Notes: generated from the sequence alone by a model not told the origin. A stretch of DNA of 64,000 nucleotides from an uncultured Spirochaetota bacterium (GCA_963734495.1 CAVTHK010000005.1:96001-160000); one strand, 5' to 3'. Counted from the stretch's first letter, positions 6,469 to 45,553 are shown. Numbers and translations are program-made.

Positions 6469-8680
6469 ATGATCACGGTGCACATGATCGGCAACGCCCA
6501 CATCGACCCCGTCTGGCTGTGGCGCTGGCCCGCCGGAGTCGTCGAGGTGCTTTCGACCTGCCGCGCGGCCGCGGACCTGATCGACGCGCAACCCGGACTT
6601 CGTCTTTACCCGCGGCGAGGCGTGGGCATACGAACAGGTCGAGCGGCACGACCCCGCGCTCTTCGAACGCATCCGCGCGCACATCGCCTCGGGCCGCTGG
6701 AAGCCGGTCGGCGGCTGGTACATCCAGAGCGACTGCAACCTCCCTCTCGCCGACTCCTTCCGCAGGCAGATGGAGATCGGGCTGCGCTATTTCGAGAAGC
6801 GGCTGGGCGTCCGGCCCGACGTCGCGTATAACGTCGACAGCTTCGGCCACACCGCGTACCTCCCGAGCCTGCTGCGCGAGCACGGCTTCGCGTCGTACGT
6901 GATGATGCGGCCGGGTCCCCACGAAAAGGAGCTGCCCGGGTCGCTGTTCCGCTGGCGCGCGCCCGACGGCGCCGAGGTCCTCACGTGGCGCATCCCCGTG
7001 AGCTACAACGCGCGGGGCCCCGAGGACCTGGAAAGAAACGTCGAGGCGGCCCTGGCCGCGGCCGCTCCGGGCATCCCGCACGTGATGTGCTTCTACGGCG
7101 TCGGCGACCACGGCGGAGGGCCCACGCAGGCGCACATCGACTGGATCCGCGCCCACGCGCGCGCCTTTCCGGACGCGGTGCTGGAGCCGAGCGACCCGCA
7201 GCGGTTCTTCGCGGCCGTGGCCCCGCAGGCGGACGCCCTCCCCGTCGTCGCGGACGAGCTGCAGTACCACGCGGTCGGCTGCTACTCGGTCGTACGTCAG
7301 ATCAAAGTTGAAGTCAGGCGCGCCGAGCGCGCGCTCGCCCGCGCCGAGACCGCGATCCGGATGGCCGGCGGCAGGCCGCCCGCCCGCGCGTCCGCGGCCC
7401 TCGAGGAGGCGTGGAAGGCCCTGCTCTTCAACCAGTTCCACGACACCTACGGCGGCAGCGCCATCGCCGAAGCGTACGCGGACGCGAGGGACCAGCTCGG
7501 GCGGTCGTGCGCGATCGCGGACGAGCTGGCGCACGCGGCGTTCCTGAAGCGGCTGGTCGCGCTCCCGCCGGACCCGCGGCAGCGGATCGTGGCCTTCAAC
7601 GCGAGCGACCGCGACTTCGACGGCGCGATCGCGCACGAGCCGTGGCTCGACTGGAGCGGCTTCGACGGGGCGCTGCTCGACGAGAGCGGCGAGGAGGTCG
7701 GCTGGCAGCCGGTGCAGCAGTCGGCGATCGTCCGCGGCCGGCGGGCCATGCTGTGGCGCGCGAAGATTCCGGCGCGCGCCGTCGCGATCTACCGCCTCGT
7801 CCCGGGCGCGGCGCAGGCTGCAGCCTCCGGCAGCGCCGGGAGCCCCGGCCCGCGCGCCGTCACCAACGGCTTCGTCACGGTGCGCGCCGGCCGCGGCGGC
7901 ACGCTGTTCGCGGCGACCGACGCCGCCGGCCTCCCGCTGTTCGACTCACCCGGGCCGCAGGTGCGCGTGCTCGAGGACGCGAGCGACACCTGGTCGCACG
8001 GCATCGACCGCTACGCGGGCCGGCGGCTGGGGCTCTTCCGCGTCACGCGCGCGGCGGTCGAGGAGAGCGGCCCGCTGCGCGCGACGCTGCGCGTGGAGGC
8101 CGCGTTCCGCTCGAGCCGCCTCGAGCTGCGCCTGCGGCTCCTCTCCGGCGACCCCGCGATTCACATGGAGGCCGCCCTGTCGTGGGGCGAGCGGCTCGCC
8201 GTCGCGAAGCTCGCCTTCACCTTTCACACTCCCATCGAGGCCCGCATCGACGGCGTGCCCGGCGGCAGCATCCAGCGGCCGCAGGATGGGCGCGAGGTCC
8301 CCTACCGCGACTGGACGCTGGCGCAGCCCGGGCTCGGCGTGGTCGCGCCCGACTGCTGGGCGCTCGACGGCGAGGGGGCCGAGGTCCGCTTCACGCTCGT
8401 GCGGTCGCCGGTCTTCGCCTGGCACGACCCGCAGAAGCTGGACCCCGGCCAGGGCTACCGCTACACGGACCAGGGCGAGCATTTCTACCGGTTCGCGCTG
8501 TTCCCCCGCGCGAGCGCCGAGGCGCTCGAGGCCGCCGTCGCCGCACTGACGCGGCCTCCGCTGTGCCTCGACTGGACGCTGGGGATGGGGGAGCCGCCGC
8601 GCCCGGCGCGCAGCGGCGTTGACAGAAGCAAGCGCGCGCGCAAGAGTGCGCAACGGCCATCGCGCGGAGGTGAAAGTTGA
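6469..8680 (+). CDS. Glycoside hydrolase family 38 (alpha-mannosidase-like), frameshift near 6593
   Basis: GNAHIDPVWLW; removing one C gives GGWYIQSDCN, VDSFGH, GVGDHGGGP, NQFHD. Confidence 0.85.
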
Positions 8681-11369: not shown

Positions 11370-12282
11370 ATGAAGGCGAGGACAAAGGACAAGCTCTTCC
11401 CTTACCTCATGCTGCTTCCCTCGATGTTCGGCCTGGCCGTGCTGATCCTCTACCCGGTGGTCCGAGGGCTCCTCCTCAGCCTCTACGAGTATACGCTCCT
11501 TTACCCGAGCTACCCTTTCATCGGCCTCGGCAACTACAAGGAGCTCTTCACAAAGGACGACATCTTCTGGGGCACCCTGGGCAACACGGTCTGGTACACG
11601 ATCGGCAACGGCGTGGGCAGCACGATCATCGCGGTCTGGGTCGCCCTGGTGCTCAACAGGGCCGGAAAGGTCCAGGCCGTTCTGCGCGGCTTCACCCTGC
11701 TGCCCTGGCTGGTGCCGTCGGTCGTCATTTCGACCATGTGGCTGTGGATGTACAGCCCGGACTTCAGCCCGATCAATGACCTCCTGCTCAAGGCCGGGAT
11801 CATCAAGGAGCAGATACGCTTTCTCGGCAACGTCGACTTCCGCGTCGGGCCGATCACGCTGCCCGTTCCTGTCGATCCTCGTCGTCCGCATGTGGTTCTC
11901 GTTCTCCTACAAGGCGGTCATCATCCTCGCGGCTCTGGTGAACATCCCGCGTGAGCGCTACGAGGCCGCGGACATCGACGGAGCGGGCGCGTGGGCCCAG
12001 TTCGTGCACGTGAGCCTGCCCGGCATCTATCCGCAGCTCATGATCGTGCTCACCCTGACCCTGATCGGCAACTTCGGCTACTTCGACATCAACTACCTCA
12101 TGACCAGGGGCGGGCCTGCCAACTACACCAACGTGATGGCCGTGCAGATGTACCTCATGGCTTTCCAGCAGTTCCGCCTGGGGTACGCGGCCGCGATGGG
12201 CATCGTGATGCTCCTTTTCACCTCGGTGATCGCCATCGCCTACGTGATCTTCGTGGTCAAGCGCGACCTGGAGGCGGCCTGA
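11370..12282 (+). CDS. Sugar ABC transporter permease (MalF-like), frameshift near 11863
   Basis: FIGLGNY, LLPWLVP; in the shifted frame the EAA loop YEAADIDGA and MTRGGP. Confidence 0.85.
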
Positions 12283-13136
12283 TGGCAGGGATGCAACGCG
12301 ACCCGCTGCCCCTGCGGATCTTGACGTGGTTTCTCGTCGCTCTCCTCGTGGTCTGGGTCGGGTTTCCCTTCTACTGGCTCTTCCTCAGCAGCATCAAGAC
12401 GCCGCTGGAACTGAGCCTGGCGCCTCCCACCTACTGGCCAAAGCAGCCGGTGTTCAAGAACTACGTGGACATCTGGACCGAAGTCACGTTCCTGCAGGCT
12501 CTTTACAATTCGTTCTTCATCACCGCGATGACCGTGTTCGTGTCCCTTGCCCTGACCACGACCACGGGCTACGCTTTGAGCCGCTTCGATTTCAAGGGCA
12601 AGGATTTCTTTGTCGGCGTGCTGCTGTTCGTGCAGCTCGTGCCGCTGGCCATCTACCTGATCCCGCTCTACTTCGTGCTGCTGAGCCTGCACCTGATCAA
12701 CAAGTACCTGGGCCTGATCATCTGCTATGGGACGATCGGCATTCCATTCATGGCGCTGATCATGCGCAGCTACTTCAAGAACGCCTACCCTGCTGAGCTC
12801 GAGGAGGCCGCCATTATCGACGGCTGCTCGCGCTTCGGGACGTTCCTGCGGATCGGCCTGCCGCTCACGCGGACCGGCATGATCGCGGTGGGGACGATGA
12901 CCGCGATCAACACCTGGAAAGAGTTCCTGTTTGCGAGCATCATCATCAACAAGGGGCGGATGCGGCCCGTCGCGGTCGTCATCTTCGACCTGGTCGGCGA
13001 AATGGGCCTCGCCTTTACGCGGATGGGGCTGTTCATGTCCGCTTGCGTGCTGGTCATGGTGCCGCTGATCGTGGCGTTCCTGTTCGTGCAGCGCCTCATC
13101 GTCGAGGGGCTCACGGCGGGGGCGGTCAAGAGCTAG
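12282..13136 (+). CDS. Carbohydrate ABC transporter permease (MalG-like)
   Basis: ELEEAAIIDGCS EAA loop; C-terminus GLTAGAVKS. Confidence 0.9.
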   Translation: MAGMQRDPLPLRILTWFLVALLVVWVGFPFYWLFLSSIKTPLELSLAPPTYWPKQPVFKNYVDIWTEVTFLQALYNSFFITAMTVFVSLALTTTTGYALSRFDFKGKDFFVGVLLFVQLVPLAIYLIPLYFVLLSLHLINKYLGLIICYGTIGIPFMALIMRSYFKNAYPAELEEAAIIDGCSRFGTFLRIGLPLTRTGMIAVGTMTAINTWKEFLFASIIINKGRMRPVAVVIFDLVGEMGLAFTRMGLFMSACVLVMVPLIVAFLFVQRLIVEGLTAGAVKS

Positions 13137-13187
13137 GGCCAGGGATGGCCCTGCCCTCGCCCGTACAGGGACGTACCAGGGCGGGGC
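13134..13187 (+). ncRNA. Structured 3'-UTR element with two CANGGANG (CsrA/RsmA-type) hairpins, copy 1
   Basis: AGGGCCA-GGGA-TGGCCCT, then outer stem GCCC(T)CGCCC/GGGCGGGGC enclosing GTAC-AGGGAC-GTAC; same topology as 39295-39350. Confidence 0.5.
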
Positions 13188-13230
13188 TGAGCCGAGCGCG
13201 GCGCGGCTCGCCGCGGGGAACCTTCAACCT

Positions 13231-13965
13231 TTGGTCATCGAGATCGACAGCGTCAGCAAGAGCTTCGGATCCTTCAAGGCCGTCGACGGCGTGAGCCTCT
13301 CCGTGGAACAGGGAGAGTTCTTCGGCCTGCTGGGTCCCAACGGGGCGGGCAAGTCCACGCTGATCCAGATGATGCTGGGGCTGCTGTCGCCCGACGCCGC
13401 GGGGGCGATCCGCCTCTTCGGCGAGCAGGTCACGCCCGGCAGCGCGCGGGCCCTCCGCAGCCGCGTCGGCGTCGTGGGCGAGGCGCCGCAGCTCCGCGAC
13501 GACCGCACCGCGGCGGAGTACCTCGTGTTCTTCGGCCGCCTCTACGGGCTCGCGGACGCCGCCGCCCGCGCGCTGGCCCGTCTCGCGGACGTCGGGCTCG
13601 CGGAGGCCGCGCACAAGCGCATCCGCACCTTTTCGCACGGCATGAAGCAGCGTCTCTCGCTGGCGCGCGCGCTCCTGCACGACCCGGAGCTGCTCATCCT
13701 CGACGAGCCGACGAGCGGGCTCGACCCGCGCGGCGTGCACGAGGTCCGTGAGCTGCTGCAGGCGCGCCGCGGCGGAGGGACCGCCGTGTTCCTCTGCTCG
13801 CACCTGCTGTCCGAGGTCGAGAAGAGCTGCGCCCGCGTGGCCATCATCCAGCGCGGCCGCATCCGCGCCCTGGGAAGGACCGAAGAGGTCGCCCAGGGTG
13901 ACCTGGAGGCGAGCTTTCTGCGCCTGACCTCCGAAGAGCCCGGCGGATCGCCGGAGGAGGCGTGA
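13231..13965 (+). CDS. ABC transporter ATP-binding protein (ABC-2 type)
   Basis: GPNGAGKST, FSHGMKQR, LILDEPTSGLD, CSH. Confidence 0.9.
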   Translation: MVIEIDSVSKSFGSFKAVDGVSLSVEQGEFFGLLGPNGAGKSTLIQMMLGLLSPDAAGAIRLFGEQVTPGSARALRSRVGVVGEAPQLRDDRTAAEYLVFFGRLYGLADAAARALARLADVGLAEAAHKRIRTFSHGMKQRLSLARALLHDPELLILDEPTSGLDPRGVHEVRELLQARRGGGTAVFLCSHLLSEVEKSCARVAIIQRGRIRALGRTEEVAQGDLEASFLRLTSEEPGGSPEEA

Positions 13966-14786: not shown

Positions 14787-15961
14787 GAAAGCCGGCGCTC
14801 ATGGCCCTGGCGCTCGCGTGCGCGGTGACGGCCCCGGCCCAGCAGGCGACGCCGCGCGCGTCGACCCAGATCGTGTTCGGCGTCGCGCCGTTCGACGGCG
14901 GACACTACCTGTCCGGCTTCGTGCCGGAGCAGCGGCACACGATGTACCTCACCGCCGACGCCGACAACGCCATCACCGTCAACATGACGGACGTGTACTA
15001 CTGGCCGATCACCGCGGAGTACCGGGCGGATTTCGAAGGCGCCAACATGCCGCTCCCGGGAGAGCTCAGGGTCTACCGGGGCCGGGAGCTGCTCTCGACG
15101 CTGCTGCCGAGCGAGTACATCTACGTCTACCCGCTCGGCCTCGAGGGCGAGGCCTCCCGCCTCGCGTTCGCCGACGAGATGAAGCGCATCATCGAGACCC
15201 GCGCGAAGGCGGTGGTGGACTACGGCGCCGGAAAGACCAAGGAGCCGCCGCGCGCCGCCTACCAGGGGCCATTCAGGGGATTCGTGCTGCGCCTGCCCCG
15301 GGGCCGCTACCGCCTGGAATACCACGTCGAAAACCAGGGCCGCTCGTTCTCGCTCGCCAAGTCGCTCGTGGTGTTCCCCGCGCTGCGGCGCGGCGTCCGC
15401 TACGAGATCATCCCGGCGGAGAAATGGACCGTCTCGTCGGACAGCGACTCGCCGCGCGCCCACCTCTACCTCAAGCCGGGCGAGGTGGTCTTTCTCAAGA
15501 CCTTCCCCACCCTCCTCTACAACGCGGCCCTGTATGACCTGATGGCTTCGCCTAACAGGCCGACGGCGGGGCTCGGTCTCGCGAGCTCCGCGCTGTGGGT
15601 CCGGACCGAGGAGTCGCTGGAGGAGAAGCCGGGAGCCTCCCTCGGGCTGCAAGCCGCCGGCCGCAGTGCCGCGATCCAGCCCCGCGACTACCTGGTGCGC
15701 CAGATCCCCGGCTCGGCTCTCGGCTACGACATCGTCGAGCACACGCCCGAGGCGTTTCCCGGCGTGCGCCCGAGCTTCCGCGCCTACCGGATCACGGCGC
15801 CGCCTCCCGGCTACGACGTGCGCCTCGCCCTGGCGGGGCAGGCGGATTCCGGCCGCGTCCTGCGCGCAGTCGATCCGCGCGGCGGCGGCTGGACAGCGCT
15901 CGCCCTGCTGCTGCCGCTCTTGCCGCTGGGCGTGAGGGTCGTGCTCAGGCGCCGGCTCTAG
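14783..15961 (+). CDS. Hypothetical exported protein with C-terminal membrane anchor
   Basis: ATGA overlap with the permease stop; signal peptide MRKPALMALALACAVTAPA; C-terminal hydrophobic helix followed by RRRL. Confidence 0.7.
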   Translation: MRKPALMALALACAVTAPAQQATPRASTQIVFGVAPFDGGHYLSGFVPEQRHTMYLTADADNAITVNMTDVYYWPITAEYRADFEGANMPLPGELRVYRGRELLSTLLPSEYIYVYPLGLEGEASRLAFADEMKRIIETRAKAVVDYGAGKTKEPPRAAYQGPFRGFVLRLPRGRYRLEYHVENQGRSFSLAKSLVVFPALRRGVRYEIIPAEKWTVSSDSDSPRAHLYLKPGEVVFLKTFPTLLYNAALYDLMASPNRPTAGLGLASSALWVRTEESLEEKPGASLGLQAAGRSAAIQPRDYLVRQIPGSALGYDIVEHTPEAFPGVRPSFRAYRITAPPPGYDVRLALAGQADSGRVLRAVDPRGGGWTALALLLPLLPLGVRVVLRRRL

Positions 15962-15963
15962 GG

Positions 15964-16039
15964 GCCTGTCGGACTTGCGGCTGACCGCCGTTCCCGCCGC
16001 TTCCGCGGGTCTGGGCACGGCGGACCGTGCCCGATCTAG
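15964..16039 (-). repeat. 76-bp dispersed structured repeat, copy 1
   Basis: Reverse complement matches 33817-33892 at 73/76 positions. Confidence 0.9.
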
Positions 16040-18620: not shown

Positions 18621-21026
18621 CTAGAACAGCCACAGCTGCCTCGCCCCGTCGAAGAGGTGCTCGATGTCGGTCCCGAAGGCCTCCACGAAGATCGAGGCGA
18701 TCGGCTTGAGCTGCCGCTCGATGTAGTGCTCGTAGTCCAGGGCCCCCGTGCGGCGGTCCGCGGGCTCGGGCCCCTTGGCCGTCATGACGTAGCTCACAAA
18801 AGCGCCCGGCTCCTCGTCGCCCATCTGCGCCGCGGCCCTCACGTGGGGCGGCACCGCGGAGGTGTAGGAGGCGACGGGCTTGCGCAGCCTCTTCCGGTAG
18901 ACGAGCTCGTCGTCGAGCTCGCCCGCCCGCATCTTCTTGACGATCCCGGCGACGAGCTCGCGCGCCTCCTCCGCGCCCCGGCCCTGGAACAGCAGGTCGA
19001 GCAGCGTGACCTGGAACCGCCTCGCGAGCGGGGTCCAGTCGGTGCGGGCCGCTTCCATTCCCTTGACCTCGACCCGACCCTCGTCGCTCCCCGAACCGAT
19101 GCGGCCCGCGTAGCCTTTGGCGCGGCCGCGGGCCGTGGGGCCGCCGCGCACCCGCGGGAGGAAGAAGTGGCTGTAGAACCTGTCGAGCTCGAGCTCGAGA
19201 CGCGAATCGACGGCGTAGCGCATGCGGCAGTAGCGGCCGAGCTCCGTGTTGACCAGGCGCAGCACCTCGTCGGCGGACAGGCTCGCCCGCTCCGAGGTCA
19301 CGAACAGCGAATCGGTATCGCCGTAGAGGACGCGCAGCCCGTGGCGCTGCAGGAGGTCGCGGCACCAGCCGAGGAGGTGCTGGCCGAGGCTCGTGACCGC
19401 TCCCGCCAGGGGCGCCCCCGCGAAGCGGCAGCCGCTCGCGCCGAGCACTCCGTAAAAGGAGTTCATGAGGATCTTGTAGACGTAGGACGCGATCTCGTCT
19501 CCGCGCTTCTGCGCCGCGGCCCGGCTGGCGAAGAACCGATCGAGCAGCTCGGGCAGGACCCCCGGCTCCCTGCGGAAGCAAGCGCCGTTCGGCGCGCAGA
19601 TCAGGCCGGGGGCGGCGGGATGGGCGCTCGCCGCCGGCGCCGCACCCGCATACGAGAGAGGATCGATATTGAAGGTGCGCATGACCGACGGGTAGAGGCT
19701 TCGGAAATCGAAGACCAGCACGTCGCGGTGCAGGCCCGGAACCGGATCGAGGATCGCGCCGCCGGGCGCGGTGCCCTCCGGCAGCGCATCGACGCCGCGC
19801 GTCGGGGCGACGCGGCCGCGGCCGTGGAGGGCCTCGATGTAGAGGTGCTCGAACGTCGAGATGCTGGTCCAGGCGCGATCGAGCGACACGCCCGTGAGCT
19901 CGCAGCGCCGCAGCGTCAGGTCGTACAGCCCGGTCCGCTCGAGGATGCGCAGGACCAGCTCCGCGTCGCGCAGGCAGTACAGGCAGAAGGCGCGCGGGTC
20001 TTCGCGCGCCGTCCGCTCGAGCGCGTCGATGCGCCGCTCGCCGGGCGCGGGCGCGAGCGATTTGCCTTCGCCGAGCACCGCCTGCGCGACCGTCTCCAGC
20101 GTGTAGTCCTCGTAGCGCTCGCCCGAGCCGCGCACGAAGCGCGCGGCGTCCCAGACCTGGCGGCCGCGGACCAGGACGCGGCCCGCAAGCGCCCGCCCCT
20201 CTGCCATCCTGAGGCGCTCCAGGTAGACGGCCGCCTCGTCCGAGCGGCCGAGGTCCACGGGAACGCCGCAGGCGCGGAAGCGCCGGATCAGGACCGCCAT
20301 GTCGAAGTCGACGACGTTCCATCCGGTGATCACGTCGGGATCCAGGGCGAGCAGCCTCTCGCGCAGGGCGGCGAGAAGCGCGCGCTCGTCAGGGAACGCG
20401 CGCACCGGCGGCTCGTCGGGGAGATCGCCCGCGAACAGCACTTCGCGCGCCGCGACCTCGCCGCCGGGGGCGCGGACCACCAGACCCGCGGCGCGGACCT
20501 GGCTCGTCCGCACGTCGGTCTCGATGTCGAGCGAGCAGACCGCCAGGCCGGGGTGCCAGTCGTCGGGAGCCGCATCGGGGTTGTGGTACACGCGAGCCAC
20601 GCGGCGGCCGGGCCGCCACGAGCCTTCGATGCGCACGGCTGCGTGGATCCGACGCTCGAGGCGCCAGGCATCCTCGGGCCTCAGGTCCGCCTCGTAGGTC
20701 CGCACGCCGGCCGCGGCCAGCCCGGCGGCGGCCCTGCTGCGCTCCGCGGTCGAGGCCCAGCTGAAGCGGTAGCACGGCTCACCGCCGAAGGTCAGGTAAG
20801 TGCTTTCGTGCCAGCGGCCGTCGCCGGCCGCGGCGATCGCCCGCTCGCGCTCGCTCCGCGGGACGAAGAAGCCGGGCCGCTCGCGGTCGTCGACCACGGC
20901 GAACGTGGCGCCGTCGCGCAGCCTGCCGATGAGGCACATCTCCGTGCGCGAAGAGCCTTCGGCCGGCGGCGCCGACCGCCTGAGGTCCCTGCAGAAGCTG
21001 TCGACGATGAAGCCGACGTCGGCCAC
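18621..21026 (-). CDS. polB: DNA polymerase II (family B)
   Basis: Exonuclease motifs SLDIET, ITGWNVVDFD, YCLRDA; polymerase motifs DFRSLYPS, KILMNSFYG, YGDTDS; GTG start 6 nt after TATGCT. Confidence 0.92.
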   Translation of the reverse strand: MADVGFIVDSFCRDLRRSAPPAEGSSRTEMCLIGRLRDGATFAVVDDRERPGFFVPRSERERAIAAAGDGRWHESTYLTFGGEPCYRFSWASTAERSRAAAGLAAAGVRTYEADLRPEDAWRLERRIHAAVRIEGSWRPGRRVARVYHNPDAAPDDWHPGLAVCSLDIETDVRTSQVRAAGLVVRAPGGEVAAREVLFAGDLPDEPPVRAFPDERALLAALRERLLALDPDVITGWNVVDFDMAVLIRRFRACGVPVDLGRSDEAAVYLERLRMAEGRALAGRVLVRGRQVWDAARFVRGSGERYEDYTLETVAQAVLGEGKSLAPAPGERRIDALERTAREDPRAFCLYCLRDAELVLRILERTGLYDLTLRRCELTGVSLDRAWTSISTFEHLYIEALHGRGRVAPTRGVDALPEGTAPGGAILDPVPGLHRDVLVFDFRSLYPSVMRTFNIDPLSYAGAAPAASAHPAAPGLICAPNGACFRREPGVLPELLDRFFASRAAAQKRGDEIASYVYKILMNSFYGVLGASGCRFAGAPLAGAVTSLGQHLLGWCRDLLQRHGLRVLYGDTDSLFVTSERASLSADEVLRLVNTELGRYCRMRYAVDSRLELELDRFYSHFFLPRVRGGPTARGRAKGYAGRIGSGSDEGRVEVKGMEAARTDWTPLARRFQVTLLDLLFQGRGAEEARELVAGIVKKMRAGELDDELVYRKRLRKPVASYTSAVPPHVRAAAQMGDEEPGAFVSYVMTAKGPEPADRRTGALDYEHYIERQLKPIASIFVEAFGTDIEHLFDGARQLWLF

Positions 21027-27241: not shown

Positions 27242-28787
27242 TCATGCCTTGCCCACCCCCAGCAGGTCCAGATGCTTCCTGATGTGCCGCTCCACCGACT
27301 TCCAGTAGGCCTCGATGTGGGTTTCGAGCACGCCGTAGATCTTCTTGTTGATCTGCGGGTTGCGCAGCATCTCGCCGTAGGTCACGTGAAGCACCTGGCG
27401 CGTGTCCGAATTGGCCAGCAGCCCCGCCAGATCCTTCAGGCCCTCCGCCTGCGGCACGTTCGCCATGTTCGGCGTGATGTGGTAGTACTTGCGCGCCGCC
27501 GGGAACGTCTCGAGGGCGTACGCGTAGAGCTCGCGGAAGAACGCCGGCTCCTTTTCGCAGATCACTTCGAGCGCCTGCAGCCAGTTGGTGCCGGCGGTCT
27601 TGACGTGGAAATAGCTCTTCGTCTCGCGGCCCACCGTCGGGAAGACCGTGAACTTGTCGCTGCCCGAATGCACGGAGATCCGGTAGCCGAACTGCCTGGC
27701 GATGGCGGCGTGGGTGCGGAAGCTCCTGTCGAACTCCGCGGGATTGCCGATGTAGTCGATGCCCTTCTGGAACTCGCCGATAAAGCGCGGCGCCACCGAG
27801 AACAGCGGGACGCCCCGCGTCTTCATCTCCGTGGCGGCGAACACGTGCGCGGCGGGCATCGTCGGCGTCGCCGTTTCGTCGATGGAGAGCTCGAAATCAA
27901 AGCGCGCCGCGCCGCCGCCCGCGCGCACTCCCGCCCGGTACATCCGCTCCGCGGCATCCAGGGCCTCGAGGTAGACGAGCGCGATGCGCGCCAGGTCCGG
28001 CGCGGGTAAAGCCGATCTTCTCGCCCGTGTCGAGAGCGATCGAGAGCGGCAGGTAGCGGCTCTCGAGCTCGGCCCGCCGGGCGGAAGGGAGCTTCGCGTA
28101 CGCCTCGAGCACCGTCTGCTCGGGCGCGCCGTCGAACTCCTTGTGGATGTGGTCCGAGACGTCGGCGGTGATCATGGAGAAGCCGAGCTTGACGGCCTTC
28201 CTGACCCAGTCGGCGGTCTTGAGGTGGTCCCCGTCGGCGCCCCACGGCCTGCGGAAGCCCTCCTGGAACACCGCCCACGTGGCCGCGTCGAGCACGTCCT
28301 CGTAGGTGCGGCTCGTGAGGTCGAGCTCCCGCACGGACTGCTGCGCGAGCACCGGCGCCGCGGCGCGGCCGGCGACCAGGCGCAGGTGCCCCGGCGACGC
28401 GAGCCCGAGCCGGTCGCCCAGGCCGATGGTCACCGGCTCGCCGCCGAGCCGGCTCGGGCCCGTGAAGGGCAGCAGCTTCCGCAGCCGGTTGGCGTTGCCG
28501 TGATCGAGCGGGCAGAACCGCGCCGCGGCGCCGGCCGCCTTGACGAGGGTCCCGGCGAAGCGCCCGCGATTCGACCCGAAGACGACGAGGCAGGGGTTCG
28601 CCGGCGAGCCGCCGAGCGCGGCCATCACCAGCGTGTCCTGCCCCACCGTCGCGAGCGAATGGGTGAAAAAGAACTCGCCGGCGCTCCCGGCCCCCGCGGC
28701 CGGGATGTTGTTGACCACCACGCCGCGCTCGACGGCGCGCCCGAGCCAGGCGGCGGCTGCCTGCGTGTCGACCTTCTTCATTTTCAC
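27242..28787 (-). CDS. uxaE: Tagaturonate/fructuronate epimerase UxaE (frameshift near 28005)
   Basis: GLGDRLG, AQQSVREL, GADGDH, then in the shifted frame FELSIDET, GEFQKGIDY, HSGSDKF, HVKTAGTNWL. Confidence 0.88.
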
Positions 28788-31071: not shown

Positions 31072-31828
31072 TCACACCGCCTTGAGAACCTCGATCCCCA
31101 GCGCCTCCAGGCTCCGTGCCTCCGCGAAATGGCGGTCGGTGACCAGGACGTCGACGCGTTCGGCCGTGGCGAAAACGCTGAAGGCGGTCACGCCGAACTT
31201 CGTATGGTCGGCCAGCACCACGCAGCGTCGCGAGCACTCGATCGCGGTCCGCTTGAGCTGCGCCTCGATCAGGTTCTGCGACGAGAACCGGCCGTCCCGC
31301 GAGATCCCGGTCGCTCCCAGGAAGCAGGTCCCGATCTGGAAATTACGCAGCGCCTGCACGGCCAGCGGGCCGATGAACGAGCCCGCCTCGGCCCGGAAGC
31401 TCCCGCCGATCGCAACGAGCGCACACGTGCGGCGCATCCGCGAGCGCGAGGATCACGTCGATCGAGTTGGTGACGACGCGCAGGCTCATGCGCCCGATCT
31501 CCCTCGCGAGCGCGGCGCACGTGCTCCCGGCGTCCAGGTAGATCGTGTCGTCCTCGCGCACGAGCTCGCGTGCGCGCGACGCGATCGCCTCCTTGAGGCG
31601 GGTGTTCTCCCTGCGGCGCTCGGGAACCGGGCGCACCCGCTCCGTGTCCTCCGAGAGCACCGCGCCGCCGTGCGTCCGCGAGAGCCTCCCCTGCTCTTCG
31701 AGGAGGCTCAGGTCCTTCCGGATCGTCACCTCGGACACGCCGAGCCGCTCCGTCAGGGTTTGCACGGAGACGCTCTTCAGGCGCTGCAGGATCCGCAGGA
31801 TCTCTGTGTGTCGCTCCTTGAAGGCCAT
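31072..31828 (-). CDS. DeoR/GlpR family transcriptional regulator (frameshift near 31436)
   Basis: VSEVTIRKDL, RTHGGA, YLDAGST, VVTNS; then GGSFR, FLGATG, ADHTKF. Confidence 0.88.
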
Positions 31829-31880
31829 GGCCGTCCGGCGCGGCCCACGCACGCCCGCGCGCCCCTGCGGGCTGCGGGGC

Positions 31881-31961: not shown

Positions 31962-32045
31962 GCGTACTCGCGGAGTGCGTACTCGCCGGAGATGGCGTTG
32001 CCCGGCGCGTGCACGCGCTTTGGCCCGGCGTACTCGCCGGGGATG
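31962..32045 (+). repeat. Cluster of three REP-like GCGTACTCGC(C)GG units
   Basis: Copies begin at 31962, 31977 and 32025/32028; an inverted copy lies at 35414-35436. Confidence 0.65.
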
Positions 32046-32722: not shown

Positions 32723-33820
32723 ATGCCAGGCGACCCGCTCCCGCCGCCCCCGCAGACGACGCACCGTCTTCTCTACGGCTCGCCGATGGCGCTGACGTCT
32801 CTCGCTCCCGCCAGCATCGCGCTGGTGGTCACATCTCCTCCCTACCCCATGATCGAGATGTGGGACAGCGCGTTCTCCGAGGCGGACCCCGTGATCGCGG
32901 CCGCGCTCGCCTCGGGCGACGGCCGCGGCGCCTTCGACCTGATGCACCGGACGCTGGAGCCGACCTGGCGCGAAATGGAGCGCGTCCTCGTGCCGGGCGG
33001 GATCGCGTGCATCAACATCGGCGATGCGGTGCGCAGCGTCGGAGGGGATTTCCAGCTCTTCAACAACCACGCCCGAATCCTCGAGACCTGCCAGCGGCTC
33101 GGCTTTGTCTCCCTGCCCTGCCTGATCTGGCGCAAACCCACCAACGCGCCCAACAAGTTCATGGGGTCCGGGATGCTCCCGGCGGGCTCCTACGTCACCC
33201 TGGAGCACGAGTACATCCTGATCCTGCGAAAAGGCGGTCGCAGGCGATTCGACGACGAGGCGGCAGCCGCGCGCAGGCGCAGCGCCTTCTTCTGGGAGGA
33301 GCGCAATCACTGGTTCAGCGACCAGTGGGACCTCAGGGGCGCGCGGCAGAAGCTGGAGGCCGGCAGCGAGAGGGCCCGCAGCGCCGCCTTCCCTCTGCTG
33401 ATCCCCTACCGACTCGTGCTTATGTTCTCGATATACGGCGACAGCGTGCTCGATCCTTTCTGCGGCACGGGCACCACGGTGCTCGCGGCTCTTGCGGCCG
33501 CCCGGAACTCCATCGGCGTGGAAATCGAGGCCGGGCTGCTGGCCAGCGTCGAGAAAGGCATGTCCGCGATCCGGGCGCGGGCCAACGAGCTGGCTTATTC
33601 CCGCCTGCAGAGGCACCTGGAGCTCGTCGACTCCGGCGAGCAGCGCGGCCGGAAAATGCGCCACTGGAACGCGCCCCACGGTTTCCCCGTGACCACGAGC
33701 CAGGAGCGAGAGATGGAGATCCTGACTGTGAGCTCGGTCGAGCAGGTGGAGCCGGGAGTCTACCGTGCGCAGTACGAGCACGCGGACCTGACGCGGTTCG
33801 CCCAGGGCGAGCTCTTCTAG
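32723..33820 (+). CDS. Site-specific DNA methyltransferase, beta class (N4-C/N6-A)
   Basis: Catalytic TSPPY precedes the SAM-binding DPFCGTGTT; also IWRKPTN, HEYIL, AAFP. Confidence 0.9.
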   Translation: MPGDPLPPPPQTTHRLLYGSPMALTSLAPASIALVVTSPPYPMIEMWDSAFSEADPVIAAALASGDGRGAFDLMHRTLEPTWREMERVLVPGGIACINIGDAVRSVGGDFQLFNNHARILETCQRLGFVSLPCLIWRKPTNAPNKFMGSGMLPAGSYVTLEHEYILILRKGGRRRFDDEAAAARRRSAFFWEERNHWFSDQWDLRGARQKLEAGSERARSAAFPLLIPYRLVLMFSIYGDSVLDPFCGTGTTVLAALAAARNSIGVEIEAGLLASVEKGMSAIRARANELAYSRLQRHLELVDSGEQRGRKMRHWNAPHGFPVTTSQEREMEILTVSSVEQVEPGVYRAQYEHADLTRFAQGELF

Positions 33821-33892
33821 ATCGGGCGCGGTCCGCCGCGCCCTGACCCGCGGAAGCGGCGGGAACGGCGGTCAGCCGCAAGTCCGACAGGC
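33817..33892 (+). repeat. 76-bp dispersed structured repeat, copy 2
   Basis: 73/76 identical to the reverse complement of 15964-16039. Confidence 0.9.
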
Positions 33893-33969
33893 TCCCAGAC
33901 GCGCGGACCGGCGAACCCGCGGGCCGCGGCATGGCGTATCGGGTGCGCGCCGGCACGCTTACAAATAGG

Positions 33970-35413: not shown

Positions 35414-35436
35414 GCCATCTCCGGCGAGTACGCCGG
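35414..35436 (-). repeat. REP-like unit CCGGCGTACTCGCCGGAGATGGC
   Basis: 20/20 match to 31977-31996; 20/21 match to 32025-32045. Confidence 0.65.
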
Positions 35437-35453
35437 ACCAGAGCGCATGGCCC

Positions 35454-36473: not shown

Positions 36474-37745
36474 ATGATGTATTTCAGCCGCGGCAGCGCC
36501 ACGGATTCGCTGGACCGGAACGCCCTGCGCGAAGGCCTCTACGCCGCGCTCGACAAGCTCGGCCCGCGGAAAAAAGTGCTCGCGATCCCCCCCGATTTCA
36601 CGCGCTTCCACTCGCAGGCCGGCGTGCTGACGGAGCTCTCGTGGGAGCGCTTCGGCGAGCGCCTCACGGACGTGCTGCCGGCCATCGGGACGCACTTTCC
36701 GGTGAGCGACCACGAGATCGCCACGATGTTCGGGCGGACGCCGAAAAGCCTCTTCCGGGTGCACGACTGGAAGAACGGCCTGGAGACCCTCGGCCGCGTG
36801 CCCGCCGATTTCGTACGGAAAGTGAGCGAAGGCAAGCTCGACTGGGACTGGCCGGCGCAGGTCGACCGGCTGCTCGTCAAGGGCGGCTTCGACCTGATCC
36901 TGTCGATCGGCCAGGTCGTGCCCCACGAAGTCATCGGCATGGCCAACTTCAACAAGAACATCTTTGTAGGCACCGGCGGCTCGGAGGGCATCAACAAGAG
37001 CCACTTTCTCGGCGCCGTCTACGGCATGGAGCGCATGATGGGGCGGGCCGACACGCCGGTGCGGCGGGTCCTCAACTACGCGTCCGAGCATTTCGCGCGC
37101 AGCCTTCCCATTGTCTATGTCCAGACGGTCGTCTCGCGCGGAGCCGATGGGAAGCTCGCGGTCCGCGGCCTGTACATCGGCGACGACGTGGAATGCTTTC
37201 ACCGCGCCGCGGAGCTGTCGCTCGAGGTCAACTTCGAGATGCTCGAGCGGCCGCTGAGGAAAGTCGTCGTGTTCCTCGATCCCGAGGAGTTCAAGAGCAC
37301 CTGGCTCGGCAACAAGAGCGTCTACCGGACCCGCATGGCGATCGCCGACGGCGGCGAGCTCATCGTGCTCGCGCCCGGCGTGCGCGAGTTCGGCGAGGAC
37401 AAGGGCATCGACAGGCTGATCCGCAAGTACGGATACGTCGGCACGCCCAAGGTGCTGGAAGCGGTCGCGCGAGAGAAGGAGCTGCAGGAAAGCCTCGGCG
37501 CGGCGGCGCACCTGATCCACGGCTCTTCCGAGGGCCGCTTCGTCATCACGTACTGCCCGGGCAAGCTCAGCAGGCAGGAGATCGAGAGCGTCAATTTCGG
37601 GTACGGCGATCTCGCCGCGATGACGAAGAAGTACGATCCGGCGAAGCTCAGGGACGGCATGAACACGGTGGGCGGCGAGGAAGTCTTCTACATCTCCAAC
37701 CCTGCGCTGGGGCTGTGGGCATACAGGGAGCGCTTTGCGTCGTAG
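36474..37745 (+). CDS. LarA-family nickel-pincer enzyme, probable D-mannonate/D-gluconate 2-epimerase (GntE-like)
   Basis: PDFTR, AIGTH, VHDW, VPHE, NKNIFVG, KSHF, GNKS match LarA active-site motifs; context is gnd, uxaE and larBCE. Confidence 0.8.
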   Translation: MMYFSRGSATDSLDRNALREGLYAALDKLGPRKKVLAIPPDFTRFHSQAGVLTELSWERFGERLTDVLPAIGTHFPVSDHEIATMFGRTPKSLFRVHDWKNGLETLGRVPADFVRKVSEGKLDWDWPAQVDRLLVKGGFDLILSIGQVVPHEVIGMANFNKNIFVGTGGSEGINKSHFLGAVYGMERMMGRADTPVRRVLNYASEHFARSLPIVYVQTVVSRGADGKLAVRGLYIGDDVECFHRAAELSLEVNFEMLERPLRKVVVFLDPEEFKSTWLGNKSVYRTRMAIADGGELIVLAPGVREFGEDKGIDRLIRKYGYVGTPKVLEAVAREKELQESLGAAAHLIHGSSEGRFVITYCPGKLSRQEIESVNFGYGDLAAMTKKYDPAKLRDGMNTVGGEEVFYISNPALGLWAYRERFAS

Positions 37746-37837: not shown

Positions 37838-39294
<1,457 letters not shown>

Positions 39295-39298
<4 letters not shown>

Positions 39299-39350
39299 GC
39301 ACATGGATGTGCCTACCCGTGGGCGACACGGATGTCAAAGCCCACGGGTA
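39295..39350 (+). ncRNA. Structured 3'-UTR element with two ACANGGANGT (CsrA/RsmA-type) hairpins, copy 2
   Basis: GTAGGCAC-ATGGAT-GTGCCTAC, then outer stem CCGTGGGC/GCCCACGG enclosing GAC-ACGGAT-GTC. Confidence 0.55.
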
Positions 39351-39372
39351 CCCCCGCATTATGATGCCTCCG

Positions 39373-39401
39373 AGCCCCGGCCCGCGCCGGGGCTTTTCTT
39401 T
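39373..39401 (+). terminator. Intrinsic terminator of the HAD-larA-gnd operon
   Basis: AGCCCCGGC-CCGC-GCCGGGGCT followed by TTTCTTT. Confidence 0.8.
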
Positions 39402-39472
39402 GCCTTGCGGGGGCAGCGGCGCCCGCATTGCATTCGCGTTCGAGCAGGCGTATGTTCAACGGCGGAGTCGAC

Positions 39473-41592: not shown

Positions 41593-41988
41593 ATGAGAAA
41601 GCTTTCTGGCATCCGCAGCCTGCACGTGCTGCCGCTGCTCGCCGCGCTGGCGTTTGCCGGCTGCGCCACGAGCGGCCCGGCGACCAGAGTCGCGGTCGGG
41701 AGCGGCCCGATCGCCATGCGAGCCGGGGACTTCATGTTCGAGCCTCGCGACTTGCAGGTCAAGGGTACGGGCACGCTGACCCTTCGGATTACCAACGAGT
41801 CGGGCACGCCGCACGACTTCACTCTCAAAGACCCCGCGGGCAGGGTAATCACCAAGGTCGAGCTCCCGGCGAACCAGACAACCACGGCAACCGTCGATCT
41901 TCCCGCCCCCGGGATCTACAAGTTCGACTGCACCAAGCCTCTGCATGCTGCGCTCGGGATGACGGGCCGGATCGTGGTGACCAGTTAG
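41593..41988 (+). CDS. Cupredoxin-domain lipoprotein
   Basis: Lipobox FAGC; PHDF and C-T-K-P-L-H-A-A-L-G-M type 1 copper ligands. Confidence 0.85.
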   Translation: MRKLSGIRSLHVLPLLAALAFAGCATSGPATRVAVGSGPIAMRAGDFMFEPRDLQVKGTGTLTLRITNESGTPHDFTLKDPAGRVITKVELPANQTTTATVDLPAPGIYKFDCTKPLHAALGMTGRIVVTS

Positions 41989-42788
41989 GGCGCGCGAGCC
42001 GGCGCGCCCTCAGCCGTTCGACCGGAGAGCAGGATCCGGTGCGCCACCACGGCCGCTCCGAACCCGTTGTCTATGTTGACGACGCAGACGCCGGCGGCGC
42101 ACGAGTTGAGCATCGCCAGCAGCGCCGCGAGGCCGCCGAAGCTGGCCCCGTAGCCGACCCGCGTCGGCACACCGATGACGGGGCAGCGGGCGAGGCCGCC
42201 GATGACGCTGGTGAGCGCGCCTTCCATCCCCGCGACGCTGATGATGACCGATGCCCCGGCGATCGCGCTCAGGCTGCCGAGCAGCCGGTGGAGGCCTGCC
42301 ACGCCCACGTCGTACGCGCGCTCCACGCGGGAGCCGAGAAACTCGACGGTCTGCGCCGCTTCCTCGGCGACCGGCAGGTCGGCGGTCCCCGCCGCCGCGA
42401 CCAGCACGGCACGCGCGTCCCGCGGCGCCGGGTGCTCGGCGCGCGCGAGCGTAACCAGGCGGGAGACGGGGTCGTAGCGCGCCTCGGGAATCTCCTTCTG
42501 TACGGCGGCGGCCATGTCCGCGGCGGCGCGAGTCCCCATCACCCGGTCGTGGTGCTGCCACAGCCTCTTCAGGATCGCGATCGTCTGATCCGCGGTCTTG
42601 CCCTCGCAGTAGACGACCTCCGGCATCCCGGTGCGCAGCTCGCGGTGCAGGTCGAGGCGGGCGTGGCCGAGGTCCTCGAACGGAAGCAGGCGCAGCCGCT
42701 CGAGCGCCTGATCCGGCGTGACCCGGCCGCGGCCCACGTCCTCGAGCAGCCGGCGCAGTCTCTCGCTGTCCATCTCTCCGGGCTCCAT
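41985..42788 (-). CDS. larB: Nickel-pincer cofactor biosynthesis protein LarB
   Basis: [54 protein letters not shown]. Confidence 0.93.
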
Positions 42789-42790
42789 AG

Positions 42791-43600
42791 CTACCCCGCC
42801 GGCTCCCTCAGGGCCTCGTTCATGCTCCCGCTGCGGAAGCCGGCCAGGTCCAGGGTGACAAAGGCGTAGCCGATCGACTTGAGCCCCGCCACCACCTCCG
42901 AACGGCGCTCGAGCAGCCGGGCGAAGTCTCCGGGCTCGACTTCGATGCGGGCTACGCGGTCGTGGGCGCGCACCCGAAGCTGCCTCAGGCCGAGGCCCCG
43001 CAGCAGCGCCTCGGCGCGCTCCACCTGCGAAAGCGCCGTCAGGGTGATCGTCGTACCGTAAGGGATGCGCGACGACAGGCAGGCCGCGGCCGGCTTGTCC
43101 CAGTTGGGAAGCCCGAGCTCGCGCGCCAGCGCGCGCACGTCGGCCTTGGTCAGCCCGGCCTCCAGCAGCGGGCTGTGCACACCGTGCTGCCGCGCGGCCT
43201 GCCGGCCGGGACGGTAGTCGCCGGCGTCATCGGCGTTCGTGCCGTCGACCACCGCGGAGTAGCCGTGCTCGCGGGCGTACGCCGCCAGCCTCCCGTAGGT
43301 CTCCTTGCGGCAGAAGAAGCAGCGGTTGGGCGTGTTCGCGAGGTACAGCGGGTCCGAGGTCTCTTCGCTTTCGATCAGAACGTGCCTCGCCCCGATGCGC
43401 CTCGCGACCTGCTCCGACTCGGCGCGGTCCGCGGACGCCAGGCTGGCGGACACGGCCGTGACGGCCACGGCCTTGTCGCCCAGCGCGTCGTGCGCGACCT
43501 TGAGCACGAGCGTGCTGTCGGTCCCTCCGGAGTAGGCGACCACGACGCTGCCGAGCCGGGCGAGGATCGCCTTGAGCCGGTCGTACTCGTCACCGCTCAT
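42791..43600 (-). CDS. larE: ATP-dependent sulfur transferase LarE
   Basis: PP-loop YSGGTDS, RCFFC, DGTNADD, RPG, ACLSSRIPYG, LRVR, GFRSGSMN. Confidence 0.93.
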   Translation of the reverse strand: MSGDEYDRLKAILARLGSVVVAYSGGTDSTLVLKVAHDALGDKAVAVTAVSASLASADRAESEQVARRIGARHVLIESEETSDPLYLANTPNRCFFCRKETYGRLAAYAREHGYSAVVDGTNADDAGDYRPGRQAARQHGVHSPLLEAGLTKADVRALARELGLPNWDKPAAACLSSRIPYGTTITLTALSQVERAEALLRGLGLRQLRVRAHDRVARIEVEPGDFARLLERRSEVVAGLKSIGYAFVTLDLAGFRSGSMNEALREPAG

Positions 43601-44868
43601 TCCGGGGCTCCCCCTCGGCCCGCAGCGACTCCACGATCCGGTCGACGGGCACGCCGTGCTCGAGCGCGAGCTTCCGCACGTCTTCGTACTCCGGCTTGGA
43701 TCTGAGGACCCGGCCCTTGAACAGCGCCTGCTTGACTCGCACCTCGCCGTACGGCGAGCTTACCTTCACCTCGTTTCTTTCGAGCATCCGCTTCCAGACG
43801 GAGGCCTCCCGGATCCCCAGCGTCGTCGTGTGCACGAACAGGATCTCGCGCACCGCCGGCAGCTCCGCGCGCCCGCAGAGCACGCCGAGGGTCACCGCGG
43901 GACGCGACTTCTTCATCACGATGGGCGTGAGGAACACGTCCATCGCCCCCGCGCGGAAGAGGAGCTCCATGGCGTGGTCGTATCGCTCAGGGCTCATGTC
44001 GTCGAGGTTGCACTCGACGAGCACCGCCTCTTCGGTCGCGGTGCCGTCGGAGCCGATCGGCGTCTCCTCTTCGTCGGTCTCGGCGAGAAAGACGCGCAGC
44101 GCGTCGGGGACGGGCCCATCCTTCCCGCCGAGGCCGTAGCCGACCTTTTCTATCTTGAAATTGAAGGAAGATACGAACCTGTCCGCGAGCGTGGCCAGGA
44201 TCGCAGCGCCCGTCGGCGTCGTCGCCTCGAAGGGAACGCCGCCGGTCCTCGCCGGGATGCCCTTGAGGATCTCGGCTGTGGCGGGGGCAGGGACCGGGAA
44301 AGTCCCGTGCGCGCATTTGACGAACCCGCTGCCGAGCTCCACCGGCCCGGCCACTACGCGGTCCACCCCGAGCGCCTCGCGGCACACGGCGGCCCCGACG
44401 ATGTCGACGATCGAGTCGACCGCCCCTACCTCGTGAAAGTGAACCCGCTCCCGCGGCACACCGTGGATCTTCGCCTCGGCGTCGGCGATCCTGGCGAAGA
44501 TCCCCAGGCTGAGATCCTTGACCGCGGGCGACAGGCTGCTCTCCTCGATCAGCCCGCGGATGTCCGCGTAGCTCCTGCTCTCCGCGTGGTGGTGCTCGTG
44601 CTCGTGGTGCTCGTGCTCGTGGCCGTGCTCGTGGCTCGTGCTCGTGGCTGCTGTGCTCGTGGCCCGCGTCGCCAGCGAGCACGACGTCGACCTTGGTGCC
44701 CTCGACGCCGCGGCGTTTGTCCCTGCGTACGCGGATCTCGTACCCGTCCAGCCTCAGCCGGCCAAGCTCCCGCCTGAGGTGGTCCGGATCGACTCCCAGG
44801 TCGATCATCGCCGCCAGGTTCATGTCGCCGCTGATGCCGGAGAAGCAGTCGTAATAGAGGATCTTCAT
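43590..44868 (-). CDS. larC: Nickel insertase LarC (full-length, +1 indel in His-rich repeat near 44634)
   Basis: YDCFSGISGDM, His-rich tract, HFHEVGAVDS, HGTFPVPAPAT, TPTGAA, ECNLDDM, MKKSRP, KPEYED. Confidence 0.9.
44586..44663 (-). repeat. (CACGAG)n tandem repeat encoding the LarC His/Glu tract
   Basis: Repeated CTCGTG units on the + strand. Confidence 0.85.
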
Positions 44869-45096: not shown

Positions 45097-45511
45097 CTAT
45101 CCGTGCAGCCGCCGCGCGACCATCTCGGCGGCCTGCGCGATGAGCGCGCCGACCGGCCTGGGCTCGAATCCCACGAGGACGAAGTGGTGCTGAGCGATGG
45201 GGATGAGGAGCTTTTCAGCCCGGCACGCCAGGACCGCCGCCGCGATGCCGGCGCTGATCTCCCCCATCATCGCGTCCGGGAGCACGACGCCTATGCGGAG
45301 CTACGACGATGTCGGCCTGCGCCACAGACACGCGGATGGCGTTCTCGCCGGTCGCGCCCCGGGTGGCGCCCGCCCGGACCATCCGGTCGGTGGCGACGGC
45401 GTTCGACCCCAGGGCGATGATCTCGGCCCGCTCTCCCACCGCGTCCTTGAGCTGCGTGACGATCTGCGTCCCGATGCCGCCGCCCAGGCCGTCGATCACT
45501 GCTACTTGCAT
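45097..45511 (-). CDS. DUF3842 family protein (frameshift near 45296)
   Basis: VAVIDGLGGGIG, ALGSNAVAT, GATGENAI, then AMMGEIS...KLLIP. Confidence 0.8.
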
Positions 45512-45553
45512 CACGGCTTGAATATCCGCGCCCGATGCCCCTGCCGGCAAGGC

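Follow-up and report, generated by a model that had tools for sequence, protein, structure and literature searches.

Genomic context of the two elements

The window (the whole 64-kb stretch of DNA analyzed here) carries two compact twin-hairpin RNA elements, copy 1 and copy 2, each attached to the end of a gene (Table 1). Both had been described in an earlier note on this DNA, and reading and folding of the sequence confirmed that they lie at the claimed places, on the plus strand, each starting at a TAG stop codon. The gene context given there is upheld by Pfam and NCBIfam matches: copy 1 follows a mannosidase/sugar ABC cluster with genes for a GH38 alpha-mannosidase, a solute-binding protein and a pair of permeases (Pfam), and copy 2 lies behind gnd, with which a HAD-like / LarA-type nickel-dependent hexonate epimerase / gnd operon ends. 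The permease gene that runs into copy 1 also matches MalG/UgpE/GlcU-type permease models of NCBIfam, all at sub-threshold scores. The orientation relative to transcription, to which the note had also pointed, is the same in the two cases, both elements being sense-oriented relative to the upstream gene.

Copy 1 lies at the boundary between the sugar cluster and an ABC-2 exporter gene unrelated to sugar uptake, which starts 95 nt past the stop codon and ~45 nt past the end of the element, and the terminator scan listed no site between 13076 and 14055, i.e. none after copy 1. It is possible that copy 1 acts as a leader of this downstream ABC-2 gene. For copy 2 a leader role is excluded by the intervening terminator, a canonical intrinsic one that begins 22 nt past the element and makes copy 2 unambiguously a 3'-UTR element. 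A readthrough or extension peptide was also rejected, the in-frame extensions past the TAG being 17 and 22 codons long and without similarity.

Table 1. Coordinates of the two elements, their predicted hairpins and the neighboring features in the window.
Feature	Coordinates	Strand	Description
Last permease gene, sugar ABC cluster	12282-13136	+	Pfam BPD_transp_1; TAG stop is T13134-A-G13136
Copy 1, twin-hairpin RNA element	13134-13187	+	First 3 bases are the TAG stop of the last permease gene
Copy 1 hairpin 1	13135-13152	+	Predicted 7-bp stem AGGGCCA/UGGCCCU (13135-13141 with 13146-13152), loop GGGA (13142-13145); shows CAGGGAUG
Copy 1 hairpin 2	13153-13187	+	Predicted 9-bp outer stem (13153-13162, U13157 bulged, with 13179-13187), inner 4-bp stem GUAC/GUAC (13163-13166 with 13173-13176), loop AGGGAC; includes ACAGGGACGT
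Third GC-rich hairpin	13188-13210	+	Predicted; immediately 3' of copy 1, without a U-run
DrrA-like ABC-2 exporter ATPase gene	13231-13965	+	NCBIfam/Pfam; next gene after copy 1
gnd (6-phosphogluconate dehydrogenase)	37838-39298	+	Pfam 6PGD, NAD_binding_2; TIGR00873, 754 bits; TAG at 39296-39298
Copy 2, twin-hairpin RNA element	39296-39349	+	First 3 bases are the TAG stop of gnd
Copy 2 hairpin 1	39297-39314	+	Predicted 7-bp stem AGGCACA/UGUGCCU (39297-39303 with 39308-39314), loop UGGA (39304-39307); shows ACAUGGAUGU
Copy 2 hairpin 2	39315-39349	+	Predicted 10-bp outer stem (39315-39324 with 39340-39349), inner stem GACA/UGUC (39325-39328 with 39333-39336), loop CGGA, 3' bulge AAA; includes ACACGGATGT
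Stretch competing with copy 2 hairpin 1	39355-39369	+	Can pair with 39297-39311; the long-range helix encloses hairpin 2
gnd intrinsic terminator	39372-39402	+	10-bp GC-rich stem followed by UUUUCUUU (terminator scan)

Conserved structure

In both elements the T of the TAG is followed by AGG, the first bases of a 7-bp hairpin whose loop is NGGA. A second helix adjoins this hairpin without a spacer; its outer stem of 9-10 bp surrounds a 4-bp GGA-loop hairpin and, 3' of the latter, a bulge of 2-3 nt. The earlier note had claimed one fold for both copies, and the MFE folds are indeed nearly superimposable, their dot-bracket strings being identical except for one bulged base and for the sizes of the inner loop and the 3' bulge; the 2-nt 3' bulge that it placed in hairpin 2 of copy 1 is the CA at 13177-13178. 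Frameshifts seem to split five or more genes of the window; the assembly may therefore contain single-base indel errors, which could affect details such as the one-base bulge of copy 1.

The MFE of the 57-58-nt pieces is -35.5 kcal/mol for copy 1 and -33.8 kcal/mol for copy 2 (z -3.2 and -5.9), and in neither case did any of 200 shuffles fold as stably. The reverse strands of both elements fold about equally well and, since palindromes fold on both strands, stability alone does not give the strand; the sense strand is identified by the GGA, which lies on it in all four loops. In a 97-nt context hairpin 1 of copy 1, whose stem takes in the AG of the stop codon, has a pairing probability of 0.94. 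When the 107-nt 3' UTR of copy 2 is folded as a whole, the predicted MFE structure (-60.4 kcal/mol) contains a long-range helix in place of the twin-hairpin fold (-55.2 kcal/mol), a gap of 5.2 kcal/mol, and the alternative pairs have probabilities of 0.85-0.99, with the first GGA buried and hairpin 1 lost in the prediction. Copy 1 has no counterpart of this competing helix. The long-range helix of copy 2 may be a switch, a relic or an artefact of prediction, the last because co-transcriptional folding favors the local hairpin.

The two copies are ~60% identical (34 invariant positions over 57-58 nt), and in their alignment 6 of 21 pairs are changed on both sides and still pair, 12 of the 21 are invariant and 95% of the cells pair; shifting the partners by 1-3 columns reduced pairing to 25-39%. 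The stem differences can therefore be called compensatory, as had been claimed, on a basis of two sequences. Since a covariance model trained on both copies would retrieve either of them by construction, a separate one was made from copy 1 alone. This model returned copy 2 as its best non-self match, at full length, with 25.9 bits and an E-value of ~1e-3 (128 kb of strand), and the next match in the window reached only 18 bits.

The loop sequences were compared with the background of the window, which has a G+C content of ~70%. The 10-mer ACANGGAYGT occurs three times, in each case within the two elements, against an expectation of 0.51, and three or more occurrences were seen in 1 of 100 shuffles; the looser 8-mer CANGGAYG is not enriched (24 found, 22.3 expected). 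Among hairpins with 4-nt loops in the window 1.4-3% have the loop NGGA (45/3201 with stems of at least 4 bp, 12/602 with at least 6 bp), and loops of this kind are found in both first hairpins and in the inner hairpin of copy 2, the inner loop of copy 1 being the 6-nt AGGGAC. A scan of the window and 77 loci (1.27 Mb together) for two ANGGAY-loop hairpins 14-45 nt apart gave three pairs, of which two are the elements described here. Pairing is predicted from the first or second base of the stop codon at 15 of 51 roughly delimited gene ends, so an overlap with the stop is not rare in itself. The twin-hairpin structure that the two elements share is not due to chance.

Putative CsrA sites in the loops

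All four loops read CA-NGGA-YG. SELEX gave RUACARGGAUGU as the CsrA consensus, with invariant ACA and GGA and with the GGA placed in a hairpin loop (PMC4347634). Counted by hand, the four sites match 9, 11, 10 and 9 of its 12 positions, GGA being kept in 4/4 and ACA in 3/4, in line with the earlier reading of the loops as CsrA-type sites. Copy 2 carries the AYGGAY-type loops AUGGAU and ACGGAU, and in copy 1 the second base is G (AGGGAU and AGGGAC). The distance from GGA to GGA is 26 and 25 nt in the two copies. Bridging by one CsrA dimer is limited by the spacing of the two sites.

CLIP data have CsrA bound to AUGGA in apical loops, with enrichment of the Salmonella peaks in 5' and not in 3' UTRs (PMC5207318). 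For the spirochaetes, one paper (PMC8668096) reports that Leptospira CsrA binds a GGA hexaloop in a GGA-dependent manner and that csrA-fliW operons, conserved in the phylum, are syntenic across Leptospira, Borrelia and Treponema. Among the 110 ORF translations of the 64-kb window no Pfam match to the CsrA or FliW families was found.

Occurrence in related genomes

The spirochaetal lineage named beforehand agrees with a public genome scan, in which the closest gnd relatives belong to uncultured Spirochaetales/Spirochaetaceae MAGs with 82-91% amino-acid identity. The closest of these (locus L025) has a gnd of 91% identity and two syntenic genes upstream, at 89% identity each. In this relative the gnd coding end aligns and the terminator stem is conserved, but the twin hairpin is absent after gnd, with a gap of ~50 nt immediately past the TA of the stop. 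Behind its stop codon comes the 8-mer GCCCACGG, which in the window serves as the 3' arm of the outer stem; either the element was inserted beside this arm and built on it, or the relative lost most of the element. Being absent there, the element is dispensable for gnd expression in that lineage. In the other nine spirochaete loci inspected no element follows gnd, and none of the 11 spirochaete loci contains a twin ANGGAY site. This presence/absence comparison is possible for copy 2 only, because a tblastn search of the fetched loci for an orthologue of the sugar permease returned distant paralogues only (28-34% identity).

The further copies sought with a covariance model, on which the earlier note had made its family depend, did not appear. 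With filters off, the two-copy model found no third copy in the window, its next match being the reverse strand of copy 2 (17 bits), and over 39 loci of relatives (681 kb) it gave no credible copy, the best match (19 bits, in the closest relative) having a first loop without GGA. These 39 loci, out of 77 fetched, comprise all 11 from spirochaetes together with Acidobacteriota, Fibrobacterota and others; the remaining 38, mostly from Bacteroidota, Chlamydiota and Bacillota, lay outside the search. A loose scan for pairs of GGA hairpins was discarded as a copy finder since it was too permissive, giving dozens of pairs per strand, and two extra sites from dot-bracket threading, at 48187 (+) and 23706 (-), proved to be ordinary GC-rich coding sequence with z ~0.

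Given its absence in the closest relative, in the other spirochaete loci and in the 681-kb model search, the element is, as judged from these comparisons, lineage-specific and was gained or lost recently, and its origin is possibly mobile or recent. Two copies are the basis of the putative family at sugar-operon ends, which is not confirmed.

Discussion

We favor the reading, to which we assign a probability of roughly 0.45, that the elements are TwoAYGGAY-like docking modules for a CsrA dimer in 3' UTRs, and we infer that CsrA is the ligand. The element would be transcribed as part of the 3' UTR of the upstream mRNA and would present two predicted high-affinity CsrA/Rsm-type sites, 25-26 nt apart, which would allow a single CsrA dimer to span the two loops, docking either on the mRNA 3' end or on a processed 3' fragment. 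CsrA might then protect or mark the 3' end of a sugar-catabolic mRNA; alternatively, it might be soaked up in proportion to the transcription of the operon by an mRNA-embedded or 3'-UTR-derived sponge, an option that would connect carbon supply to the CsrA-FliW circuit. Since the AG of the stop codon lies inside hairpin 1, a terminating ribosome must melt this hairpin, and full display would be expected only on a processed 3' fragment or on mRNA whose end is not being translated. Stabilization, marking or titration would each be a conceivable effect of binding, and display would presumably be gated by the ribosome.

A selfish or recently acquired structured insertion is unlikely. Here the elements would be miniature mobile elements of the REP/TwoAYGGAY type, adjacent to TAG/CTAG, with hairpins that serve their own spread and no regulatory role in the host. 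The ~50-nt gap straight after the TA(G) in the closest relative, where the coding end and the terminator align, speaks for an insertion, and so does the outer-stem arm GCCCACGG directly behind the stop codon of that relative. The window also holds another structured repeat, an 83-nt pair 94% alike, flanked by CTAGA in one copy and abutting TAG stops, and TwoAYGGAY in Pseudomonas is described in a preprint as multi-copy and mobile-element-like with very variable copy number (bioRxiv 10.64898/2026.09.22.753630). Yet at ~60% identity every helix (through six double changes) and all four loops have been kept, which neutral decay would not do; neither a target-site duplication nor terminal inverted repeats could be clearly made out on inspection, and no transposase family, including the REP-associated Y1 type, was found among the 110 scanned ORFs. 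Insertion is moreover compatible with, and not exclusive of, docking by CsrA.

The features conserved between the copies are loops and fold, which any loop-specific ligand could select, and the GGA loops might therefore serve another RNA-binding protein or an RNA containing UCC, for example an sRNA or 16S rRNA with its anti-Shine-Dalgarno end. A CCUCC does lie behind copy 2, just ahead of the terminator. We consider such a ligand distinctly unlikely, in that conservation reaches past the GGA to the closing CA...YG, a context specific to CsrA, and no complementary partner was identified.

That the elements are plain 3'-end hairpins, blocking exonucleases or aiding termination in the manner of REP stabilizers, with GGA loops by chance, is improbable. 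Their GC-rich stems are very stable (-34 to -36 kcal/mol), each element stands where a transcription unit ends (copy 1 at the ABC-2 exporter boundary, copy 2 before the terminator), and hairpins overlapping the stop are common here, as noted above. Against this, CA-NGGA-YG recurs in 4/4 loops when NGGA occupies 1.4-3% of comparable hairpins, the detailed architecture common to both exceeds what stability needs, and the terminator scan gave neither element the U-tract of its own that an intrinsic terminator has. Palindromic operators at the DNA level for a dimeric transcription factor, for which the 8+4+8 near-perfect palindrome of copy 2 hairpin 1 might speak, are very improbable indeed, as the GGA conserved in 4/4 loops has no symmetry and always lies on the sense strand, the nested hairpin with its bulge makes no operator sense, and the elements lie at gene ends, not at promoters.

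Docking of CsrA at these 3' UTRs, if it occurs, would mean that mRNA ends of catabolic operons can serve as CsrA docks or sponges in FliW lineages, would carry the TwoAYGGAY design into another phylum and into a new position, fused with the stop codon, and would give the TwoAYGGAY/CsrA hypothesis a compact 57-nt test object. A more far-reaching version, which we regard as quite doubtful, is that these are the first two members of a spirochaete 3'-UTR family, conserved in structure and divergent in sequence, that docks a CsrA dimer and, by titration from sugar operons, feeds the FliW-CsrA flagellar checkpoint. If true, there would be a layer of RNA antagonists in a lineage whose supposed CsrA antagonist is the protein FliW, and the fusion with the stop codon would tie the display of the sites to ribosome termination. 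To our knowledge, RNA antagonists of CsrA are largely unknown in FliW-using bacteria (spirochaetes, Bacillus, Campylobacter). If there were no binding, the elements would still be a clear instance of two unrelated 3' UTRs that have converged on, or acquired, one fold.

Comparison with known RNA families

A check against Rfam, proposed in the earlier note, gave no family reaching threshold for either element, and none at its gathering score in the whole window. At E-values up to 10, four sub-regions gave chance-level matches to miRNA precursors, Ysr224, the rnk leader, Spot 42 and Guanidine-II (8.2 bits), and hairpin 1 of copy 2 gave a weak, sub-threshold local match to RsmV (clan CL00106), with 12.7 bits against a cut-off of 100; two further families of the Csr/Rsm clan at the same hairpin were suppressed as overlapping with RsmV.

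REP and BIME sequences are stable palindromic hairpins right after stop codons that can stabilize the upstream mRNA and vary between relatives, and REPs occur in many near-identical copies. The elements resemble them as stable hairpins adjoining a stop codon, with differences in presence and absence between relatives, and are unlike them in that there are two copies, ~60% alike, whose stems have changed in a compensatory way and whose loops are conserved. The features of REP/RAYT systems are not seen, there being only two copies, with the head GTAG in copy 2 and CTAG in copy 1. Termite-flg (RF01729) RNAs, from termite-hindgut metagenomes, are 5' leaders of flagellar genes whose hosts are presumably spirochaetes. 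Their rows end in GGCA-UGGA-UGGCC ahead of the SD/start codon, which is near to GGCCA-GGGA-UGGCC in hairpin 1 of copy 1; they differ from the elements in having a single GGA hairpin beside the ribosome-binding site and an otherwise different structure, and they gave no Rfam match here.

The Csr/Rsm sponges (CsrB/CsrC, RsmX/Y/Z, RsmV) consist of serial GGA-loop hairpins, as do the two copies, and copy 2 is then followed by an intrinsic terminator. The copies differ from these sponges in that they have two sites only, score far below every family threshold and do not form a stand-alone gene with a recognizable promoter (0 promoter-like sites in the scans). RsmW derives from a 3' UTR. It can be grouped (PMC4950607) with the mRNA-borne titrators of CsrA, and work on the C. 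jejuni flaA mRNA (PMC4894983) is the source of the idea that CsrA may be titrated by an mRNA itself in a FliW-type organism. In the spirochaetes, RNA partners of CsrA are not unheard of, since a CsrA-like ncRNA is mentioned for L. biflexa (PMC8668096), and to that extent the earlier statement that no such RNA had been described in spirochaetes calls for qualification.

The closest likeness is to TwoAYGGAY (RF01731; Weinberg et al., 2010, PMC2864571). In this family, as in both copies, a simple AYGGAY-type hairpin is followed by a composite one that has an outer stem, a mostly 3' internal loop or bulge and an inner AYGGAY-type hairpin. In a by-eye comparison with seed rows of supplement file 5, hairpin 1 is represented by rows with ACAUGGAUGU or ACACGGAUGU, and the outer stem with its 3' internal loop surrounds GUACAGGGACGUA, GACACGGAUGUC, GCACAUGGAUGUGC or GGGACACGGAUGUCCC. 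Over 10-13 nt the loop modules of the window copies (ACAUGGAUGU, GUACAGGGACGUA, GACACGGAUGUC) agree fully with such rows, and the G at the second AYGGAY position of copy 1 is present in published rows as well. TwoAYGGAY was proposed as a CsrA-binding sRNA in 2014 (Gardner and Eldai, PMC4333381), and this family of the same design likewise qualifies the earlier claim of novelty. The idea of a Csr/Rsm sponge is repeated for TwoAYGGAY in the preprint cited above, in the available part of which Spirochaetota are not mentioned for that family.

Several differences stand beside this likeness. Both hairpins of TwoAYGGAY rise from a common basal stem, which the copies do not have: no enclosing helix appears in the folds of copy 1, and the sole enclosing helix of copy 2 uses up hairpin 1. 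The external stem of TwoAYGGAY is itself described as poorly conserved, and one of its stems as containing tandem G.A pairs (PMC4333381); by inspection, the copies contain no GA/GA juxtapositions. The copies also have no linker between the hairpins and have GC-rich stems, and they are fused to a stop codon within a 3' UTR, whereas TwoAYGGAY is marked as not cis-regulatory in the table of Weinberg et al. (2010). TwoAYGGAY is recorded from the human gut, Gammaproteobacteria, Clostridiales, Pseudomonadota and Bacillota, and the copies come from Spirochaetota. RF01731 gave no match at gathering score in the window and was not listed at E-values up to 10 for pieces of 81-181 nt. Because of the missing basal stem, linker and tandem G.A pairs, the GC-richness, the fusion with the stop codon and the lack of an RF01731 match, we describe the elements as a TwoAYGGAY-like variant and do not file them as members of TwoAYGGAY; they could equally have arisen by convergence, since the hairpins are near the optimal CsrA ligand. 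What is new here is the presence of twin GGA hairpins of the TwoAYGGAY-like, Csr/Rsm type in a new phylum and in a new position.

Predicted Alternative Folding and Surroundings of the gnd-Linked Element

Folding predictions for copy 2, the twin GGA-loop hairpin element that follows gnd, also returned a long-range helix (39297-39311 with 39355-39369) which encloses hairpin 2 and competes with hairpin 1, and whose predicted stability exceeds that of the twin-hairpin fold by 5.2 kcal/mol. No counterpart of this helix was present in the predicted folds of copy 1, the equivalent element downstream of the sugar ABC cluster.

Three sites of a motif of ~16 nt (GTACTCGCCGGRGATG), all in the same direction, lie between the divergent genes for a DeoR-family regulator and a flavin-reductase-like protein; a fourth, inverted, lies upstream of the HAD-like/hexonate epimerase/gnd operon. 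The motif is a candidate operator that would tie the DeoR-family regulator to the gnd operon.

Coordinates of features in the window
Feature	Positions	Context or evidence
GTACTCGCCGGRGATG motif sites	31964-32045 and 35416-35449	
LarA-type nickel-dependent putative hexonate epimerase	36474-37745	directly upstream of gnd; NF052594, 653 bits
LarB-like (AIR carboxylase) and LarC-like (nickel insertion) genes	41985-44459	3-5 kb downstream
83-nt repeat, copy A	15957-16039	between convergent genes; direct CTAGA...CTAGA on flanks
83-nt repeat, copy B	33817-33899	adjoins TAG of DNA methylase gene
Split UxaE	27242-28787	
Split ABC permease 1	11370-12282	
Split DeoR regulator	31072-31852	
Split DUF3842	45097-45550	
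Split GH38 N-terminus	6469-8680	

Other Features of the Window

Two copies of a separate 83-nt repeat, 94% alike and inverted relative to each other, carry a GGGCRCGG-CGGA-CCGYGCCC hairpin on one strand, and the pair looks like a small MITE/REP-like insertion. Given the direct CTAGA flanks of copy A, this copy supplies the TAG stops of both adjoining genes.

Five genes are apparently split, the overlapping ORFs of each holding complementary halves of one Pfam family; they are either pseudogenes or the product of indel errors in the assembly. At 18621-21026, a gene for a family-B DNA polymerase, with DNA_pol_B and exonuclease domains, adjoins a methylguanine methyltransferase-like gene, an arrangement unusual enough to be noteworthy for a spirochaete chromosome. 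Among the 77 loci of relatives fetched through gnd, the epimerase-gnd pairing is kept in distant phyla.
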